IMG/VR virus record: IMGVR_UViG_3300010885_057925
Location: 1 to 64,000 of that record
Strand: one strand, 5' to 3'
From: a virus
Length of the DNA stretch: 64,000 bases
The translations under genes and the position numbers were made by a program. The notes beneath the pieces are model-generated. The model was not told where the DNA came from. It worked only from the letters and a program-made list of their open reading frames with translations, and did not search any database. Position 1 is the first letter of the stretch, and each line of letters opens with the position of its first letter. Below, one piece after another: positions 19,350 through 30,965 of the stretch.

Positions 19350-22300
19350 TCACTTGCATTTCGAATACCCGCACGACTTGCAGGAAAGACATCCTTCCTG
19401 ATAGACGAGCTCGGGATTGCCACACTCTGGGCACCCCTTTTCGCTTGACTTGGTACCATCCTTGATGTATCCCTTGAGGACCCGAGCGATCACCCGGGCA
19501 TATGAAAACATATCACTATTCTTATCCTTTTGCAACTGCTCCACAACATAATGAAGCGGAACTTCATGCCGCAGGGCGAGCGAGATAGTTCTCGTGAACG
19601 CGCCCTGCGTCGGATTGTCGAAAAGATTCACGATGTCCTTGAAAACGAGATTATCGTCCTCTCCGACTGGAACAAGCAGGTTGTAGGTTGCGACTCCGTC
19701 GCGCTTTCCATTCTTTACGAGCGTTCCCGATTTGTATTTCTTCGGAATCTCGATATTCTCTGGAATTCCGCAGAAAACCTCGTAAGGCTTTCCTTCGTTC
19801 AGGCCGATGAGGACGAGCCAAGATTCTGGAGTATCGCCGTTCCTGATATTGACCCTGTGGATATCACTGGGGAGCGACTTCGGGCGCTTCGGTACCAGAC
19901 GCCCGTCGTCAGCCTTCTTACTCTCCTTCTTCGGTTCATCAGCAGCTACAAGAACGCCCGCCCGACAGCCGTCGCGATAGACGGTGAATCCCTTGCACCC
20001 CGTCTTCCAGGCCTTCATGTAGACATCGTTGACCGTTTCGCGTGTTGCTGTGTTCGGCAGGTTACAGGTCTTGGAGATCGAGTGATCGATCCATTTCTGG
20101 GCAGCAGCCTGAATCTCAACAGACTTGGACCAATCGATGTCGTTCGCAGTTCCACCCCAGTAAGGACTCTCCCGTGGATCCGACTTTCCGGTGACATCCA
20201 TCCACTTTTTGAACCAGTGATGATAGACCGTATACTCCTGCCACTTGTCACCCAAGGGATCGACGTAGTCCTCTCTGGAAGTAAGATCACCCTGTGTTAT
20301 CTTACGACGACGCTTGTAGGAGAGCATGAACGCAGGCTCGATGCCAGACGTCGTACGGGTGAGGCAAGAGACTGAACCCACTGGCGCCGTGGTTGTGAGA
20401 GCGATGTTACGACGCCCCGTAGTCTTCCACATGTCGAGAGCATCATGATGGAGAGCGCTGGTAGCCCCCATGACTCCCTTCAGGTACTCGTGATCCTTCT
20501 CCTTCTCATAGTCCCAGACTGGGAACGCACCACGTTCCCGTGCCATCACAAGGGAGGAGTAGTGAGAGTACTTCGCGAGCCAACTGTAGATCACCTCGGT
20601 CATGTGAATCGAATTGTCAGATCCGTACTTGAGCCCAAGAGCTGCGAGAGCATCTCCAAGACCTGTGATACCGAGACCGGTCCGACGACCGTTAAGCCCG
20701 GCGGCTCGAATCTTGTTCCAGAGATCACGCTCGATCCGCTTCACGTGATCGGGCTGAGGATCACTCTCGATCTTCTCCAAAATGCGATCAACACATTCGA
20801 CCTCAAGATCGACGAGATCGTCCATGAGACGCTGGGCTGAGTAAACCGTCACACCGAATTCAGTGAAATCAAACTCTGCGTTCTCGGTGAACGGGTCCTT
20901 CACGAAAGACGTCAGGTTGACGACCATCAAGCGGCAGCTATCGTACGGACTGAGAGGGATTTCTCCGCAGTTCTTCACGCAAATGCCAGAAGACTCAACG
21001 AACCGCTCATCCTCGCCGGAAGTGATGACGAAGTAGTTGTGGTTGTCGTCCACAGTGATATTGAAGACATCCTCGTGTCCCACGGACTCAACAGACACAA
21101 CCTTGTGGTTGTTGATCACAGCACTCTTGAAGTTGCTGAACCTGCCAAACCTAAAGTCGTTGGCGAGGTGGAGGGGCGCACCGACATCCCTTGCGTGATC
21201 GATCCACGCCTTTCTCGTGAGCTGGCCCTGCTGATCAAAGATGCGCCGTCCCATCTCGATCAGCTGTTCGTTCGTGAATCCGCTGTACCTGCCATTCTGC
21301 TCTCCCGGATGGGAGGCGAACTTCTCCTGCCACTCTGCGTCCATGCGATGGTACGGATTGTTGGATCCCCGCATCTTGACAGCATGGAGCTCGCGGTGCT
21401 CATCGTGCGTCATGACAGTCAGGTTGTCGATGCTGTCATTCAAGCAATCGAAGTCAGCGTGATGAATGGCGTGTGTCTTGGCGTCCACGCTGCCCCTCAG
21501 GAACTCGTGGATCAGGCGGTACTGGCGCCTGTTCCTAAAACCCTCACCCTGGAGCTTCTCACCTGTGTTGCAGACCTGTCGGTACCCGTTCGAGTTGAAG
21601 GAGTTGAAGGGGACAATGCTATCTCCGGGCTGCAGATCGCACAGATTTCTGTAAGTCAGGTCCTTCAGGAGGATCTTGTGATCCGGCGTTGCCCTCAGTG
21701 TCGATCCGTCATCGAGTGTGAGCTTCCAGATCTCCTTCTTCTCTCCCGTGAGTCGAGGGTTCCTGCCCATCTTGACGACCGTCTTTCCTGACTGGAGGTC
21801 GACCGAGTAGACCGGAACATCTCTCCCCTCAGCAGCGAGCTGAGCGATCGAGACCGCGTTCCTACCGTCGGCAACAGCGATCAGGGCGTCGCCCGTGATA
21901 CACGGATTGGTGCTGATGGTCTTGTAGCCCAGGTCCTGGTAACGATCCACGATGCCGTTGTCGATAACCGTGTCCCAGAAGAGCGCACCTGGCTCCGCCG
22001 AGGCCCACGCGGCGTCGATAAACTTGTCCCAGACATGCTTCGCGTTAACGACCTTCGTGATCTGAGCCGAATCTGCCGGCTCCTCGACGGGCCAACGCAA
22101 TGTGAATTCGCTACCGCTCTCAACAGCCCGCATAAACTCATCGGTGAATCGGATGCTAATGTTAGCTCCCGTCACCTTTTTGAGGTCACGCTTTATATCG
22201 ATGAATGTCTCAATCTCGGGATGACGGCAATCGATCGTGAGCATGAGCGCGCCACGACGACCGCCCTGGGCAACCTCACGACAGGAGTTAGAGAAGCGCT

Positions 22301-22784
22301 CCATGAAGACGCCGATACCGTCTGTCGTACGCGCTGCGTTCGAGGTCGGTTGTCCCTTCGGACGGATGGTGGAGATATCGAATCCCACACCACCGCGTCG
22401 TTTCATGATCTGGACCTGCTCCTGATCCGAGAAAAGAATACCGCCATACGAATCGTTGGGCTGCTCGATGACAAAGCAGTTGGATAACGACTGCAGCTGG
22501 TATGGATTACCAATACCTGACATTGGAGATCCCTGCGGCACGATGTACTTGAAGTCACGTAACAGGCTGTAGATGCTCTCCTCATCCATCGGATTCGGGT
22601 ACTTTCTCTCGATCCTAGCAAATTCGCGAGCAAGACGACGATGCATCATGTCGGGGTCCGCCTCGAGCAGATTGTCGTCAGCGTCACGAAGCGCGTACTT
22701 CATGAAAACGTCTGGTGCCAACTCGTCATTCTCAAAGTAAGCATTAGTACGCTCACGAACTTCATTCTTGGTGTAAGACATCAT
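19350..22784 (-). CDS. nrdJ: Class II (B12-dependent) ribonucleotide reductase with intein
   Basis: SNCFV, GGVG, QGGRRGA, NP[intein]CGE, TTAPVGS, SGIEP, SISKTCN, KGFTVYRDG and a C-terminal CxxC...CxxC. Confidence 0.93.
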   Translation of the reverse strand: MMSYTKNEVRERTNAYFENDELAPDVFMKYALRDADDNLLEADPDMMHRRLAREFARIERKYPNPMDEESIYSLLRDFKYIVPQGSPMSGIGNPYQLQSLSNCFVIEQPNDSYGGILFSDQEQVQIMKRRGGVGFDISTIRPKGQPTSNAARTTDGIGVFMERFSNSCREVAQGGRRGALMLTIDCRHPEIETFIDIKRDLKKVTGANISIRFTDEFMRAVESGSEFTLRWPVEEPADSAQITKVVNAKHVWDKFIDAAWASAEPGALFWDTVIDNGIVDRYQDLGYKTISTNPCITGDALIAVADGRNAVSIAQLAAEGRDVPVYSVDLQSGKTVVKMGRNPRLTGEKKEIWKLTLDDGSTLRATPDHKILLKDLTYRNLCDLQPGDSIVPFNSFNSNGYRQVCNTGEKLQGEGFRNRRQYRLIHEFLRGSVDAKTHAIHHADFDCLNDSIDNLTVMTHDEHRELHAVKMRGSNNPYHRMDAEWQEKFASHPGEQNGRYSGFTNEQLIEMGRRIFDQQGQLTRKAWIDHARDVGAPLHLANDFRFGRFSNFKSAVINNHKVVSVESVGHEDVFNITVDDNHNYFVITSGEDERFVESSGICVKNCGEIPLSPYDSCRLMVVNLTSFVKDPFTENAEFDFTEFGVTVYSAQRLMDDLVDLEVECVDRILEKIESDPQPDHVKRIERDLWNKIRAAGLNGRRTGLGITGLGDALAALGLKYGSDNSIHMTEVIYSWLAKYSHYSSLVMARERGAFPVWDYEKEKDHEYLKGVMGATSALHHDALDMWKTTGRRNIALTTTAPVGSVSCLTRTTSGIEPAFMLSYKRRRKITQGDLTSREDYVDPLGDKWQEYTVYHHWFKKWMDVTGKSDPRESPYWGGTANDIDWSKSVEIQAAAQKWIDHSISKTCNLPNTATRETVNDVYMKAWKTGCKGFTVYRDGCRAGVLVAADEPKKESKKADDGRLVPKRPKSLPSDIHRVNIRNGDTPESWLVLIGLNEGKPYEVFCGIPENIEIPKKYKSGTLVKNGKRDGVATYNLLVPVGEDDNLVFKDIVNLFDNPTQGAFTRTISLALRHEVPLHYVVEQLQKDKNSDMFSYARVIARVLKGYIKDGTKSSEKGCPECGNPELVYQEGCLSCKSCGYSKCK
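20970..21902 (-). mobile_element. Intein (about 311 aa) with HNH endonuclease in the NrdJ active-site NPC motif
   Basis: Starts CITGDALIAVADG; block B TPDHKIL; HNH segment IHH.D....ND..DNL.....H...H; ends VFNITVDDNHNY...ICVKN before CGEIPL. Confidence 0.92.
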
Positions 22785-24190: not shown

Positions 24191-25186
24191 TTAAGTATGA
24201 AGAAGGTGACTTGTCAGTTGGAAGAAAACTCGCTCTCGATCGAAATTGTTTATTCCGGACCTGACGAGTAACCTGAGATATTCCATCTTATTGGCCTCTG
24301 GCCTAAATGATTCGAGTCCAGATTCGATTTTTCCGACTTGATTTCCCGAGAGGGAAGAGACATCGAGGTTCATAAGCTGCCAGTTGAGCCGCGCTTCGTC
24401 CGCACCTTCCACTATGCTTCGGAGCAGCTGTGGACCCTTCGGGGTGACCCGCGCGGCAGCCATGTTGACAATGTCATCCGGACTGAGCAAAGCCTCTCCA
24501 GCGACCTCCGGGAAGCGTTTAGCCATGGTCTTCCATCCAGCTCCTTCGATACCCGGAATTCCGTCCGCACCGTCACCGACAAAGCATCGAGTCGACACGA
24601 AGTTCCTCGCTGTGCACCCGAAGCGGGTCAGAACGTCAGGTTCGTTAACGAAAGACTTCGAAGTTGGGCTCCAGATCCTCACACGACCGTCGAGAAGCTG
24701 GTAGTAGTCCTTGTCGGACGACATGATGACACAAGGATCGTCCTTTAAGCGGTAGCGGGCAACGTAAGCGATGACGTCGTCAGCCTCACAGTCGGTGACG
24801 TAGCTCTGCTGGACAGGTAAAAGCTTCAGAATCTGAACAAGAGTCGCAACCTGCCAGTTCCTGTTTCCCACAGTGTCGGGAATATCGCCCTCGTAGTACC
24901 TGTTGAGCTTTTGGGGCTTCCGTTTCGTCTTGTACTCGGAGAAAAGTGCCCGACGTCTGGGAGAGCCACCGCCCTCCCAGACAACGATGACCCGTCGTGG
25001 GCTCAGAAACTCACATTTCTGCCCAAGCTCGTTCAGAAAACCCACAATTCCACCGACAGCCTGCCCGTTGGCACCCAACGTGGGGTTCGCGCAGAAATGT
25101 CGCGTAAAACAGTTGAGCTAAAGACCGTCAATTAGGAGTGTTGGTCTCCCACTGACGGTCTTCTCCTTTAAAGTTAGAGATTGCAT
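24191..25186 (-). CDS. 5'-3' exonuclease/RNase H (FEN-like) with in-frame TAG at codon 23
   Basis: From ATG 25186: MQSLTLKEKTVSGRPTLLIDGL*LNCFTRHFCANPTLGANG..., then RR..Y.EYK..R, EADD, SSDKD and GDGADGIPG. The ORF track reports only 24191..25078, which lacks the first catalytic motif. Confidence 0.85.
25121..25162 (-). promoter_or_regulatory. Stem-loop ending at the CTT codon before the in-frame TAG (candidate recoding signal)
   Basis: AAGACCGTCAGTGGGAG-accaaca-CTCCTAATTGACGGTCTT, with a perfect 10-bp outer stem. Confidence 0.7.
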
Positions 25187-26138
25187 TTTCTATCGTTCCT
25201 TGAAAGTTTTCGGTTAGGTTCTTCTGCCAGATACAACAAAAACTATAACCTGATTGGATCGCGAGTTCAGCTTTCATTCTGTCTCTCGACCGAATCTCTG
25301 CAGCACGAACGTCTCGACGCTCATCGTAATGATTCTCAGAATACAGCTCAGGATTGAAGTGCCAGTAATCTCCGTTAATCTCTATCATCAGATTTAATTC
25401 TTCAACGAAGATGTCATACACTCGATTCTTAATTCGATGTGAATGCTTACAAGTGAATCTTTCACTCAAGTAATCAAATACGTCTTTTTCGATTTGGCTT
25501 CTCCACAGCCCGTTTCCGCGGTCAAACGCGCCGTCCTCCCACATCCTGCGAGTTCTTTCAGAAATTTTTTCGCGAACTACCTCACTGTGGTTTCGCCCTT
25601 TCATCCAGCAAGTTCCACCGTTCTTAAAGAATCGAAGCTTGGCTTGCTTCATTTTCTGCTTTGTTTCTTCTGACATCTTGAATCTTCTACCTGTCATTTT
25701 TTGAGAGAATTTTTCGTAGATGCCGTTTCTTATCTTAGTTTCTTTAGCTTTCGCAGCGCCCGCAATCAACGATTCCTTAGTTCGCAGCGGCCCAACTTCT
25801 TCGATCCTCTTCTTTAGAGACTCAGATATCTTCTTCTTAGTCTCTTGTGTATGACGAACCCCAACATGACTCGCTGCAATTTTTTTCTTTCGTTCCTCGG
25901 GCATGGGGCCATGCTTTCGCCCTTTATTGACTTTAACGCTAGCGATGTTTCTTCTATTCATCGCGGTTTTCCACGCTACCTCAGAGTATTTTTCCTCTCC
26001 AAGCTCGTGCTTCAACATTTTGATAGTTTTATTTCTCCCGAATCCCCATAAAGCTCTGACTTCATCGATCGTTGAGCCATTCAAAAACGCCGCTACACCA
26101 ACTTCAACGCTTTCAGACAAGCTAGCCTCCATGAACAC
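25128..26138 (-). CDS. Free-standing homing endonuclease (NUMOD3 repeats plus Vsr/EDxHD-like nuclease)
   Basis: Repeats HTQETKKKISES, MSEETKQKMK and HSEVVREKISE; C-terminal SQIE...YDIF...IEINGDYWH...D..K. It is more AT-rich than its flanks and overlaps the start of the exonuclease gene. Confidence 0.85.
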   Translation of the reverse strand: MFMEASLSESVEVGVAAFLNGSTIDEVRALWGFGRNKTIKMLKHELGEEKYSEVAWKTAMNRRNIASVKVNKGRKHGPMPEERKKKIAASHVGVRHTQETKKKISESLKKRIEEVGPLRTKESLIAGAAKAKETKIRNGIYEKFSQKMTGRRFKMSEETKQKMKQAKLRFFKNGGTCWMKGRNHSEVVREKISERTRRMWEDGAFDRGNGLWRSQIEKDVFDYLSERFTCKHSHRIKNRVYDIFVEELNLMIEINGDYWHFNPELYSENHYDERRDVRAAEIRSRDRMKAELAIQSGYSFCCIWQKNLTENFQGTIENAISNFKGEDRQWETNTPN

Positions 26139-26178
26139 GATTAAATATTCACGGAGGTTAGCGCTGAATTAACTTATT

Positions 26179-27381
26179 TCAACTTTCCGGATCGATGTCG
26201 GCACCAACCATCTGGTCACGAAAAGCTCTCATCTCCTCGTAGGACTCAGGATCGATGTCAAGGTCATTCGCGCTCACGGTGGTACGGATGAGAGCTTTCT
26301 CCAGGAGCCCATCGATCCACGGCTTGTACTGGGGATCCTTCCACAGGTCACCGAAATCAGCCTTGTAGAACTTCTTCTCGAGGATATTCTCGTTCCTTTC
26401 GTTGGTTACCTTGATCGTCTTCCACGCGCTGGTGCCCTCGACCGAAACCTGATGGTCGTTAATCATGTCGGGACCATGTTCACGAAGAACGTCAAAGACT
26501 TCCTCATGTTCCTCGATGCCCTTGCCGAAGATGATCCTGAACTCGACCTTTCGGAAGGGCGGAGCGACCTTGTTCTTGATCGTTTTTGCCCAGACGTTAA
26601 TACCGATCGCCTCACCCTGCTTATTCTCGATGTGGGAACCAGCTCCGAGCTTGAGACGAACCGAGGCGTGGAACGGGATCGCCATACCGCCGGGGGTCGT
26701 CGTGGGGTCACCATGCATCACGCCGATCTTCGTGCGGATCTGGTTAAGGATGACGAAGAGGACGTTCTGATCTCCGATGACACCAGTGATCTTTCGCATG
26801 CCCTTCGAGATCGCGCGCGCCTGAAGGCCGATGGTATCCTTGTCGTAAGCACCCTCAAGCTCAGCTTTCGGTGAGGATGCTGCCACTGAGTCCCAGATGA
26901 TCGTGATCGGGACGTCCTTTGCCATCGCTTTCGCCTTCAGGATCGTCTTCTCAGCGATATCAAGCACCTCCTCGGTGCAGTGAGTATCAACATAGACAAA
27001 CCGCTTGCTCACATCGACCCCCAACGCCGCCAGGTTCTCAACCGAGGTGCCGTTCTCGGTATCGATGTAGACTACGATGCCGCCCATCGACTGGGTCGAT
27101 CGGGCGATCTGGGTCGCGATGTGAGACTTTCCGATCGACGGAGGCCCAAAGATCTCCACGATTCGCCCCTCCGGGAGTCCACCCTTCGCTCGATTTGAAA
27201 CGACGAGATCAAGCTGCTTGGATCCGCTGGAGATCCAGCGCTTTACGTGGGTCGGTGACGTATCAACAGCTAGATTGTATGCGATTCGAGAGCCGTGATC
27301 CTTATTAAGGGACGAGATGAGCTCACTGGTAAAATCATCAGCAGCAGTCTTCGCTGCTGCCGTAGTATCCTTCTTTGCCAT
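26179..27381 (-). CDS. recA: RecA/UvsX recombinase
   Basis: GGLPEGRIVEIFGPPSIGKS, IDTEN, WDSVAA, NQIRTKIG, TPGG.A..F.ASVR, KNKVAPPF. Confidence 0.96.
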   Translation of the reverse strand: MAKKDTTAAAKTAADDFTSELISSLNKDHGSRIAYNLAVDTSPTHVKRWISSGSKQLDLVVSNRAKGGLPEGRIVEIFGPPSIGKSHIATQIARSTQSMGGIVVYIDTENGTSVENLAALGVDVSKRFVYVDTHCTEEVLDIAEKTILKAKAMAKDVPITIIWDSVAASSPKAELEGAYDKDTIGLQARAISKGMRKITGVIGDQNVLFVILNQIRTKIGVMHGDPTTTPGGMAIPFHASVRLKLGAGSHIENKQGEAIGINVWAKTIKNKVAPPFRKVEFRIIFGKGIEEHEEVFDVLREHGPDMINDHQVSVEGTSAWKTIKVTNERNENILEKKFYKADFGDLWKDPQYKPWIDGLLEKALIRTTVSANDLDIDPESYEEMRAFRDQMVGADIDPES

Positions 27382-29801: not shown

Positions 29802-30965
29802 TCATCCCTCCTCATCTACATAGGCTGGCTCGAAAGAAAGATAAAAGTGGCCGAGACGATCTATTTCGACGCCTTCACTCGCGATCTCTCTCATGCGAGA
29901 GATTGAATCGGGATGACAATCTACAAGCAGCGCGTCGTGGAGGACAAACACGGGTTGGACCAGCAGGTCCTCGGATTCGACCCTATTCATGATATCGCTG
30001 AATCCCATAAGCGAGACGTCGACGGCAGTTGATTGAGCGTAGTGTGATATCGCAAGATGCGGATCGCCTGCTTCAAGAAGCGGACGACCCCAGAAGTTTT
30101 TAGGTTCATCTGAGTCTATGATTCTACGACGAAGGGATTCCAAGCCGAAGTAATCGTTGATCTCCCTCATCAGCCGAGAGGCGTCAGCACCGACCTCCTC
30201 TCGAACTGACTGTCCTGAAGCACCGTAAAGAGACTTGAGAGTCGCAAGCTTCGCATGACGTCTATCGACTCCTTTCAAACGCTCAGCAATCGCTCCGTAG
30301 ATATCAGCCGGGGCCTCACCGCTTCGAAGGAGTCTGAGAACTCTAGGTTCGAGTGACACGAAGTCGATCTGGTATACTTTTCCGCCGTCGTATCGACTCG
30401 CGAGAATCTTTCTATGCGACTTTTGAAGCGTAAGAATCCTGGGACCTTCCGAGATCGTTAAGCGCCCGGTCGCAGTCCTATGAGAGTAAATCACGGGGCC
30501 AGCCATGCTATCGGACCCAGGTTCAAAAGTTTCGAGAACGTTGAGCTGCTGCGATTCAGACTGAGCTACCCGAAGAGCGGCGAGATCGATTCGACAGGGA
30601 ACGAGGCGCTCGAGAATGGAACGGCCCAAGGACAGCACATCAGAGTAATCACCAACAACCGCCAGAAGCTCTTCGAGCTCATCCGAGATCGTGGACAGGT
30701 TCTCATATAGAACGCGTTGTGGGATGACCAGAGGCCACGGGACTGCCCCTCGTGACAGCCCATCCATCGAGCTGACAAACTCGGGTGGGATAAGCTGCGG
30801 CAGCTCCCTGTCGCATGATTCGTAAATGGATTCGATCGAACGAGCCACCGAACGATCTCCGACGCACCAAGCGTTTTCCGGAACCTGCTCGGACCAGGAG
30901 AGCTTTCCTTCCCCTAAAATCGCGTGTTTTGGAGAGTTCAGGGCTAGTTTTGACGCGTACATCAT
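29802..30965 (-). CDS. Family A DNA polymerase core (no exonuclease domains)
   Basis: TATGRLT, motif A DFVSLEPRVL, motif B RRHAKLATLKSLYG, QSTAVD, motif C LHDAL. Confidence 0.82.
   Translation of the reverse strand: MMYASKLALNSPKHAILGEGKLSWSEQVPENAWCVGDRSVARSIESIYESCDRELPQLIPPEFVSSMDGLSRGAVPWPLVIPQRVLYENLSTISDELEELLAVVGDYSDVLSLGRSILERLVPCRIDLAALRVAQSESQQLNVLETFEPGSDSMAGPVIYSHRTATGRLTISEGPRILTLQKSHRKILASRYDGGKVYQIDFVSLEPRVLRLLRSGEAPADIYGAIAERLKGVDRRHAKLATLKSLYGASGQSVREEVGADASRLMREINDYFGLESLRRRIIDSDEPKNFWGRPLLEAGDPHLAISHYAQSTAVDVSLMGFSDIMNRVESEDLLVQPVFVLHDALLVDCHPDSISRMREIASEGVEIDRLGHFYLSFEPAYVDEEG

Follow-up and report, generated by a model that had tools for sequence, protein, structure and literature searches.

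Layout of the locus

The DNA analyzed here, referred to as the window, is a stretch of 64,000 nucleotides at the beginning of a single viral contig of 171,517 bases (IMG/VR record IMGVR_UViG_3300010885_057925). It contains a replication module, entirely on the minus strand, with genes for a gp32-like protein, the recA/UvsX recombinase, an endonuclease, a 5'-3' exonuclease, a DnaB-like helicase, and ribonucleotide reductase. This report concerns the endonuclease gene and the adjoining start of the exonuclease gene, which is interrupted by a stop codon within a six-nucleotide insert. The following features were assigned (SD, Shine-Dalgarno sequence):

26179..27381, minus strand: recA/UvsX recombinase gene (Pfam RecA, E 3e-62)
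25113..26195, minus strand: mobile cassette of 1,083 nt with promoter hairpin, endonuclease, replacement exonuclease start, hairpin, and insert
26142..26148, minus strand: ATATTTA, probable phage late-promoter motif
26121..26162, minus strand: hairpin masking the endonuclease SD (z -5.1)
25128..26120, minus strand: free-standing homing endonuclease, 330 aa (Pfam NUMOD3, Vsr/I-Bth0305I fold match)
25197-25201, minus strand: AAGGA before the exonuclease ATG
25121..25186, minus strand: replacement exonuclease 5' end, ATG plus 22 codons ending I-D-G-L(CTT)
25163..25166, minus strand: GGAG directly 5' of the base of the exonuclease hairpin, with a putative SD-like role
25121..25162, minus strand: hairpin ending at the take-off codon, mostly coding in two frames (z -6.5)
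25115..25123, minus strand: CTT TAG CTC, a stop between the putative codons for take-off and landing
24191..25117, minus strand: 5'-3' exonuclease (flap endonuclease) body, 308 codons (Pfam 5_3_exonuc_N)

The original prediction, made from the window alone, had described a NUMOD3/Vsr-like gene between recA and the exonuclease, the ATATTTA motif, the overlap, and the hairpin, and its layout and coordinates all hold. The endonuclease region has a G+C content of 39-47%, compared with 52-60% in the flanks.

The exonuclease frame begins with the ATG at 25186 and runs for 22 codons to I-D-G-L, where it meets a TAG (25118-25120) that is followed by 308 in-frame codons. The junction reads GAC GGT CTT TAG CTC AAC in the window and GAC GGN YTN AAY in insert-less relatives, an excess of 6 nt. 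In an alignment with the 5' nuclease of Taq polymerase, the DG that precedes the stop falls on the LLVDG motif, whose Asp is established as catalytic in this nuclease family. In insert-less relatives, the recA stop is followed by ATG and LGGRPTLLVDG-LN, so that the start of the window exonuclease is a replacement. The exonuclease is present in a single copy in the 171.5-kb genome (one tblastn hit).

The hairpin at 25121-25162 has a predicted energy of -26 kcal/mol (z -6.5, 0 of 200 shuffles), and 35 of its 42 nt are coding in both frames. It is the strongest among the 67 CTY-stop-YTN contexts of the genome. For comparison with the window, relative loci (L-numbers) were gathered. They comprised 221 distinct exonuclease 5' ends, of which 188 were intact, 32 had a six-nucleotide insert, and one had a one-nucleotide insert; truncated database proteins and a nuclease homologue led to three further insert alleles. 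In all, independent assemblies yielded 36 distinct insert alleles. This number, together with the purifying selection described below, rules out an assembly error or a recent nonsense mutation. An open frame of 22-41 codons precedes the stop in nearly every insert allele. The hairpin was present in all 33 insert alleles tested (z ≤ -3.4, median -5.7, compared with -0.15 in intact alleles), and it showed covariation, with 88% of cells paired and six pairs changed on both sides (0 of 500 shuffles). In the close group, 15 of 16 alleles have GGAG at the hairpin base, with GAG invariant; closure of the hairpin would leave 3-5 unpaired bases between this sequence and the landing codon. Strong hairpins upstream of the DG codons, with DG not included, were also seen in the intact alleles L437, L440, and L444.

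The endonuclease open reading frame (ORF) spans 25128-26138, with a likely start at TTG 26120, 5 nt after GGAGG (26126-26130). Its TGA ends 7 nt ahead of the exonuclease TAG, and the two genes overlap by 59 nt (25128-25186). Pfam identified NUMOD3 in the N-terminal region (E 7e-6, two stretches, above cut-off). An AlphaFold model was obtained with a mean pLDDT of 79. Its best Foldseek matches in the PDB included Vsr (1cw0, rank 1, E 9e-4) and the catalytic domain of I-Bth0305I (3r3p, ranks 3 and 5), both with a probability of 1.0, and a profile search of PDB sequences returned nothing relevant and no detectable match to 3r3p. Residues E211, D236, E247, Y252, W253, H254, and D280 were invariant in 14 homologues; they were matched to D51/F67/W68/H69/D97 of Vsr (PMC2677866) by motif pattern and not by residue-level superposition. 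Judging from the model, the C-terminal domain is of the Vsr/EDxHD type. Among diverged pairs, the endonuclease had a dN/dS of 0.08-0.18.

The ATATTTA motif occurs 13 times on the coding strand and once on the other, in most cases just upstream of an SD and start codon. In front of the endonuclease gene it occupies the 5' arm and loop of the hairpin at 26121-26162 (z -5.1), in which GGAGG (26126-26130) is masked; this second hairpin had not been part of the original prediction. A similar hairpin was found in most nuclease-bearing relatives and in remnants of the gene. T4 endonuclease genes have a comparable arrangement of late promoter and SD-masking hairpin (PMC2988022), and in Vsr-like endonuclease genes a late-promoter hairpin masks the SD likewise (PMC2677866).

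Translation of the interrupted exonuclease gene

Within clades made up entirely of insert alleles, the exonuclease had a dN/dS of 0.035-0.16 at dS up to 2, with invariant acidic motifs, and the codons directly after the stop varied mostly synonymously among insert alleles. These data bear on the possibility that there is no recoding and the gene is either a pseudogene or makes a product from the downstream start TTG 25078, with or without a separate 22-residue peptide. Such a scheme needs no unusual mechanism, gene callers annotate truncated products of this kind (P0003, P0009-P0012), and host polymerase I could cover the exonuclease function. We nevertheless consider it very unlikely in view of the selection in all-insert clades. 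Moreover, N2 and R6, which lie upstream of TTG 25078, are invariant in 30 alleles, with codons that vary synonymously, and the first motif Asp precedes the stop. CTC, CTA, CTT, and TTC are not known to be usable as start codons. Initiation at the landing codon via a hairpin-bridged SD was ruled out because the codons at this position are mostly CTC, CTA, CTT, and TTC, and because the first Asp would be lost.

The 32 alleles with a six-nucleotide insert use all three stops (TAG in 15, TAA in 11, TGA in 6). The take-off codon was CTT in 30 alleles and CTC in two, a count biased by the partial gathering of insert alleles with DNA patterns that fix GGT CTT. The landing codon was CTN in 30 alleles, TTC in two, and TTR in none. 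TTR encodes the Leu of DGLN in 51 of the 114 intact DGLN alleles (45%). Two marks of programmed translational bypassing are present in the sequences: take-off and landing codons that one tRNA could read, with a slow A-site codon in between (CTY, a stop, and then CTN or TTC in 32 of 32 alleles), and a conserved hairpin with compensatory changes.

A +1 variant, GGT CTT TAA T, was found in L103 (1309-1323) and L473, in two runs of one study. In L103, DGLN would be restored if the tRNA slipped by +1 from CUU to UUU. The sequences CTT TAA CTT AAT and CTT TAA T are the same except for a 5-nt repeat, and one could yield the other. The nuclease of the +1 variant has EIQRDYWH instead of EINGDYWH.

The three stops, the hairpin, the restricted landing codons, and the +1 variant accord with re-pairing of tRNA-Leu in the P site and agree poorly with readthrough. 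We therefore think it likely that ribosomes hop from CTT over TAG to CTC, giving D-G-L-N. The protein-preserving hop of the original prediction accordingly agrees with purifying selection and hop signatures in the interrupted gene, as far as sequences can indicate. Landing at CUA, CUG, and UUC needs relaxed pairing. Because the hairpin ends at the take-off codon, its folding would be completed only as the ribosome moves on; the 5' stem-loop of T4 gene 60 has likewise been proposed to form behind the advancing ribosome (PMC5009743; 10.1101/2024.12.09.627546). Two points weigh against this interpretation, the bias in the take-off count and the lack of GGAG in some distant insert alleles.

In stop-codon readthrough, the stop would be decoded as an amino acid to give D-G-L-X-L-N, and the hairpin would only slow termination. 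The insert is indeed in frame, and C follows the stop in 30 of the 32 alleles, a weak termination context in E. coli. All three stops occur, however, the phage genome has no suppressor tRNA, and the DxxN motif is free of additional residues in all 188 intact alleles. Furthermore, the +1 variant could not be read through, two alleles have TTC after the stop, and we know of no readthrough signal that consists of a hairpin 5' of the stop. Readthrough therefore appears improbable. Reassignment of TAG in an alternative genetic code was ruled out, as none of the 20 tRNAs encoded on the 171,517-base contig (at 147053-163242) reads a stop and TAG terminates 18 of the 128 long ORFs of the genome. The two Leu tRNAs of the phage genome read UUA and UUG, so that CUN codons, including those for take-off and landing, rely on host tRNA.

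The six bases might also be removed at the RNA level, by cleavage and ligation at the hairpin base, or be skipped in transcription. A long conserved hairpin that ends exactly at the site would suit such a process, but the in-frame stop at the start of every insert, the limits on landing codons, and the 1-nt version would be left unexplained. No phage precedent for such a process is known to us, and we see very little chance that this explanation applies.

A variable-gap scan of viral contigs for other gap lengths gave no new exonuclease variant among the matches listed, and none of the 25 matches of the insert pattern in a genome collection lay in an exonuclease. The closest cultured matches to the window exonuclease were only 27-35% identical. 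No cultured carrier of the insert was found among the three best matches examined; the Mel-JY01 and immuto genes are intact. Gene callers truncate insert-bearing genes, so that such cases are missed.

Movement of the cassette and its target

The window and L004 differ at only 5 of 1,083 bases between 26195 and 25113, compared with approximately 15% in recA and the exonuclease body. On the left, the last difference is at 26196, within the final recA codons; on the right, the first difference lies five bases after the start of the landing codon. Six changes of insert state are needed in a tree built from the DNA of 28 close exonucleases, and the approximately unbiased (AU) test rejected a single clade both for the eight insert alleles (p 7e-81) and for window plus L004 (p 2e-40). 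At least 20 changes are needed in a 220-row exonuclease protein tree. The low divergence in the cassette relative to its flanks and the scattered occurrence of the insert on the trees indicate that endonuclease, replacement start, hairpin, and insert almost certainly move as one unit. The patchy distribution and lateral movement at a fixed site are those expected of a free-standing homing endonuclease. The L004 tract and the tree tests thus bear out the proposal that endonuclease and insert form one mobile cassette.

In scans made with the exonuclease only, a nuclease gene was adjacent to 2 of 8 insert alleles and to none of 155 intact alleles (Fisher p 0.002), or, with remnants counted, to 5 of 8 and none of 155 (Fisher p 6e-8); the rows are related and were partly gathered by pattern, and these and the other co-occurrence p values are therefore rough. 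Three insert alleles from these scans retain decayed nuclease remnants and the promoter hairpin. A tree of 46 catalytic domains placed 18 recA-internal rows (L040 included) apart from 28 exonuclease-adjacent rows (support 98), which are start-proximal in either orientation. All members of a 14-row subclade of the latter (support 90) bear the insert, and L474 adds one, so that the insert is present in 15 of 15 members of the close nuclease clade. L113, the sister of the 14-row clade, has DASS where DGLN is expected. Two distant nucleases of the tree, L058 and L267, classed by hidden Markov model only, are also placed before an insert. Independent distribution of insert and endonuclease among relatives, which would have spoken against the original prediction, was not observed (0/155 vs 2/8; 15/15 in the clade). 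The co-inheritance that had been proposed turned out to be one-way: in the 15-member clade the nuclease implies the insert, but no intact nuclease accompanies 19 of the 36 insert alleles, and the insert is absent from 12 exonuclease-adjacent relatives that are more distant. The proposed target locus, the exonuclease and not recA, is in line with the attachment of the nuclease clade to the exonuclease 5' end. A further idea, that insert-less alleles beside a nuclease avoid DGLN (1/12 vs 114/188), was dropped, as most of these alleles belong to one clade whose nuclease-less members also lack DGLN.

If the cassette spreads by break repair, its edges place the break probably within the approximately 55 bp from the recA stop to DGLN, an interval wider than the IDGLN codons named as the cut site in the original prediction. 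The I-Bth0305I consensus TTxG-N6-CxAA is unmatched at DGLN. Removal of the insert creates a TTGA-N5-TCAA pseudo-palindrome, which is within chance expectation and only 3/4 matched in close recipients. We favor, with moderate confidence, the view that the six-nucleotide insert shields the exonuclease gene from the nuclease. The cassette has its right edge at the insert, the nuclease clade goes with the start of the exonuclease and not with recA, the recA/exonuclease junction varies among hosts and DGxN is constant, and the insert has been lost only from loci that no longer have the nuclease. For I-Bth0305I, insertions in the central target reduce cleavage most (PMC3239194).

Several points weigh against self-immunity. 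Linkage alone predicts co-inheritance of insert and nuclease, because the RPTLLxDG codons of the cassette differ from those of recipients (approximately 8 of 27 bases relative to L001) and crossovers to the left of the insert may therefore be rare. The insertion itself also destroys the recA/exonuclease junction. The 12 more distant exonuclease-adjacent nucleases without an insert, among them L099 beside an ordinary GAC GGC CTC AAC, indicate that the nuclease family can manage without it. Finally, the insert long outlives the nuclease (dS >1 in L025/27/28 and L265/269), which allows for a regulatory role or a low cost. The I-Bth0305I consensus TTxG-N6-CxAA is unmatched at DGLN. Removal of the insert creates a TTGA-N5-TCAA pseudo-palindrome, which is within chance expectation and only 3/4 matched in close recipients.

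In a rather unlikely alternative, the cassette is mobile and the hop real, but the nuclease cuts the junction of recA stop and exonuclease start or a site farther away. The insert would be merely linked and kept because it is cheap or tunes the exonuclease level. The replaced interval does contain the junction, free-standing T4 nucleases often cut far from their own gene (PMC2988022), distant family members reside inside recA, and I-Bth0305I cuts recA (PMC3239194). In addition, the insert persists without the nuclease in 19 alleles, and reverse-oriented nuclease relatives need no insert. However, the junction differs widely among hosts that are 44-100% identical and DGxN is conserved, and the nuclease clade adjoins the exonuclease also in loci in which other genes separate it from recA (L098, L114, L191, L198). 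The shared tract ends within the last recA codons, making a cut inside recA unlikely, and the restriction of insert loss to loci without the nuclease also speaks against mere linkage.

With regard to such losses, hairpin-bearing alleles retain the insert in 17 of 17 cases with a nuclease and in 6 of 12 without (p 0.002). The intact alleles L030, L396, L416, L434, L438, and L441 have the hairpin but neither insert nor nuclease. We read these alleles as precise six-nucleotide deletions that followed nuclease loss; alternatively, they may represent a precursor state. In L279, a 72-residue ORF approximately 90-305 nt upstream of the insert fuses the start of the 193-residue gene of L269 to a Vsr-like nuclease tail and is probably a deletion remnant; the L279 stop is TGA, and that of the near-identical L269 is TAA. 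In L045, L098, L099, L114, L119, L191, L193, and L198, related nucleases are reversed, start within approximately 100-160 bases of the exonuclease motif, and are not accompanied by an insert.

A homing cassette with a recoding insert is the best overall explanation, and we hold it to be somewhat more probable than its competitors combined. Late in infection, a promoter inside the 5' hairpin would free the endonuclease SD, by analogy with T4. The Vsr-fold nuclease would then cut the DNA of cassette-less phages in the approximately 55 bp between recA stop and DGLN, most likely at or next to DGLN. Repair would copy the 1,083-nt unit and replace the native exonuclease start, a replacement that the comparative sequences show, and the insert would spoil the target, making carriers resistant to cutting. 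During translation, the ribosome would stall with peptidyl-tRNA-Leu on CUU and the stop in the A site. The hairpin would zip up behind the ribosome and pull the mRNA forward, and the tRNA would re-pair at CUC six bases on, with nine bases yielding one Leu and DGLN restored. GGAG 5' of the hairpin may help to fix the landing. The nuclease would later decay, and the insert would persist as a resistant allele or be deleted, leaving the hairpin.

Relation to known recoding and homing systems

To our knowledge, T4 gene 60 is the only well-studied bacterial bypass. The work on gene 60 and the MobA nuclease (Bonocora 2011) is summarized in 10.1101/2022.08.31.505936. According to that source, the gene 60 insert is present wherever the MobA clade is and also in several genomes that lost the nuclease, which is lost first, with precise loss of the insert later; carriers of the gene 60 cassette also include nucleases of the VSR and GIY-YIG families. 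The two systems share a free-standing nuclease and a translated-over insert that move together, a new N-terminus supplied by the nuclease in an overlapping frame, a take-off codon followed by a stop, a 5' stem-loop, an SD-like element, an insert that outlives the nuclease, and later precise insert loss. They differ in the target (5'-3' exonuclease in the window, topoisomerase large subunit with CTE/NTE in gene 60), the gap (6 nt in frame, or 1 nt in one variant, as opposed to 50 nt), and the take-off codon (CUU/CUC for Leu as opposed to GGA). Unlike gene 60, the window lacks a separate take-off stem-loop, its nascent peptide is only 22 codons long, and the host gene is not split into two proteins. 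A sequence relationship between the two systems was not seen, though no comparison aimed at one was made. The window cassette is therefore an analogue and not a member of the MobA/gene 60 element, given the different gene, the 6-nt gap, and the CUU take-off. An independent origin, as proposed in the original prediction, is supported by the difference in target gene and by a recoding signal unrelated to that of gene 60; the different nuclease family, which had also been put forward, is a weak mark, as VSR and GIY-YIG nucleases are among the carriers listed above.

Synthetic stop-hops in E. coli (Weiss 1987) have been covered by a 2016 review (PMC5009743). In these constructs, as in the window, a stop has matched codons on either side and nine bases would yield one residue; the window differs in being natural and selected, in its dedicated 5' hairpin, and in landing codons that are often imperfectly matched. 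No natural in-frame stop-hop was known to the same review, and our literature searches found no published natural stop-hop and no paper on the window locus.

The window nuclease shares with I-Bth0305I and EDxHD nucleases the N-terminal NUMOD, the C-terminal Vsr fold, the SD-masking hairpin with late promoter, and the 3' overlap with a downstream gene (PMC3239194, PMC2677866). It is free-standing at the exonuclease start, whereas EDxHD nucleases lie in a recA intron or between split inteins, and its clade is apart from the recA-internal relatives of the tree.

The +1 frameshift site of prfB (RF2) is CUU-UGA-C. An SD lies upstream at set spacing (PMC5009743). As in prfB, CUU precedes the stop in the window, and the slip from CUU to UUU that would restore DGLN in L103 is the one of prfB. 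Unlike in prfB, the shift needed in most alleles is +6 and not +1, a 42-nt hairpin stands between the SD-like sequence and the site, and no autoregulation is implied.

We see an even balance for and against the broadest reading, that a natural hairpin-driven stop-hop serves as a minimal self-immunity module of homing endonucleases attacking the catalytic DGLN codons of phage 5'-3' exonucleases, in hosts to approximately 33% identity, with more than one nuclease lineage and a +6/+1 switch at CUU-stop. T4 gene 60 seems too elaborate for a one-step origin, and the window cassette would be the same strategy in a reduced form consisting of hairpin, Leu codon, stop, and second Leu codon. Stop-hopping, for which the 2016 review had synthetic constructs only (PMC5009743), would also gain a natural use. 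As a test set for the drive exerted by a hairpin behind the ribosome, the 36 natural alleles offer three stops, five landing codons, compensatory hairpins, and a +1 variant. Besides introns and inteins, the cassette would add a route by which a homing nuclease can destroy a catalytic-motif target and yet keep the protein.

Additional interruptions were noted in neighboring genes and related loci. Vsr-like nucleases of a separate clade interrupt recA near residues 222-233 in L040, L106, L121, L140, L143, L147, L165, and L178, and likewise in L214, L215, L222, L227, L241, L267, L296, and L358. The site is near the MHGDP loop, in the region targeted by I-Bth0305I. An insertion of approximately 440 nt without a nuclease, possibly an intron, is found in the same recA region of L042. 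The helicase match in L103:2245-3939 breaks at residue 216 and resumes approximately 550 nt on in one open frame, probably due to an intein. In the window, the ribonucleotide reductase ORF (19350-22784, minus strand) contains an apparent intein (CITGDAL ... KN/C) with an HNH-like stretch, and a short DNA polymerase-like gene of 387 residues (29802-30965, minus strand; PHROG 17, E 2e-12) is separate from the exonuclease.

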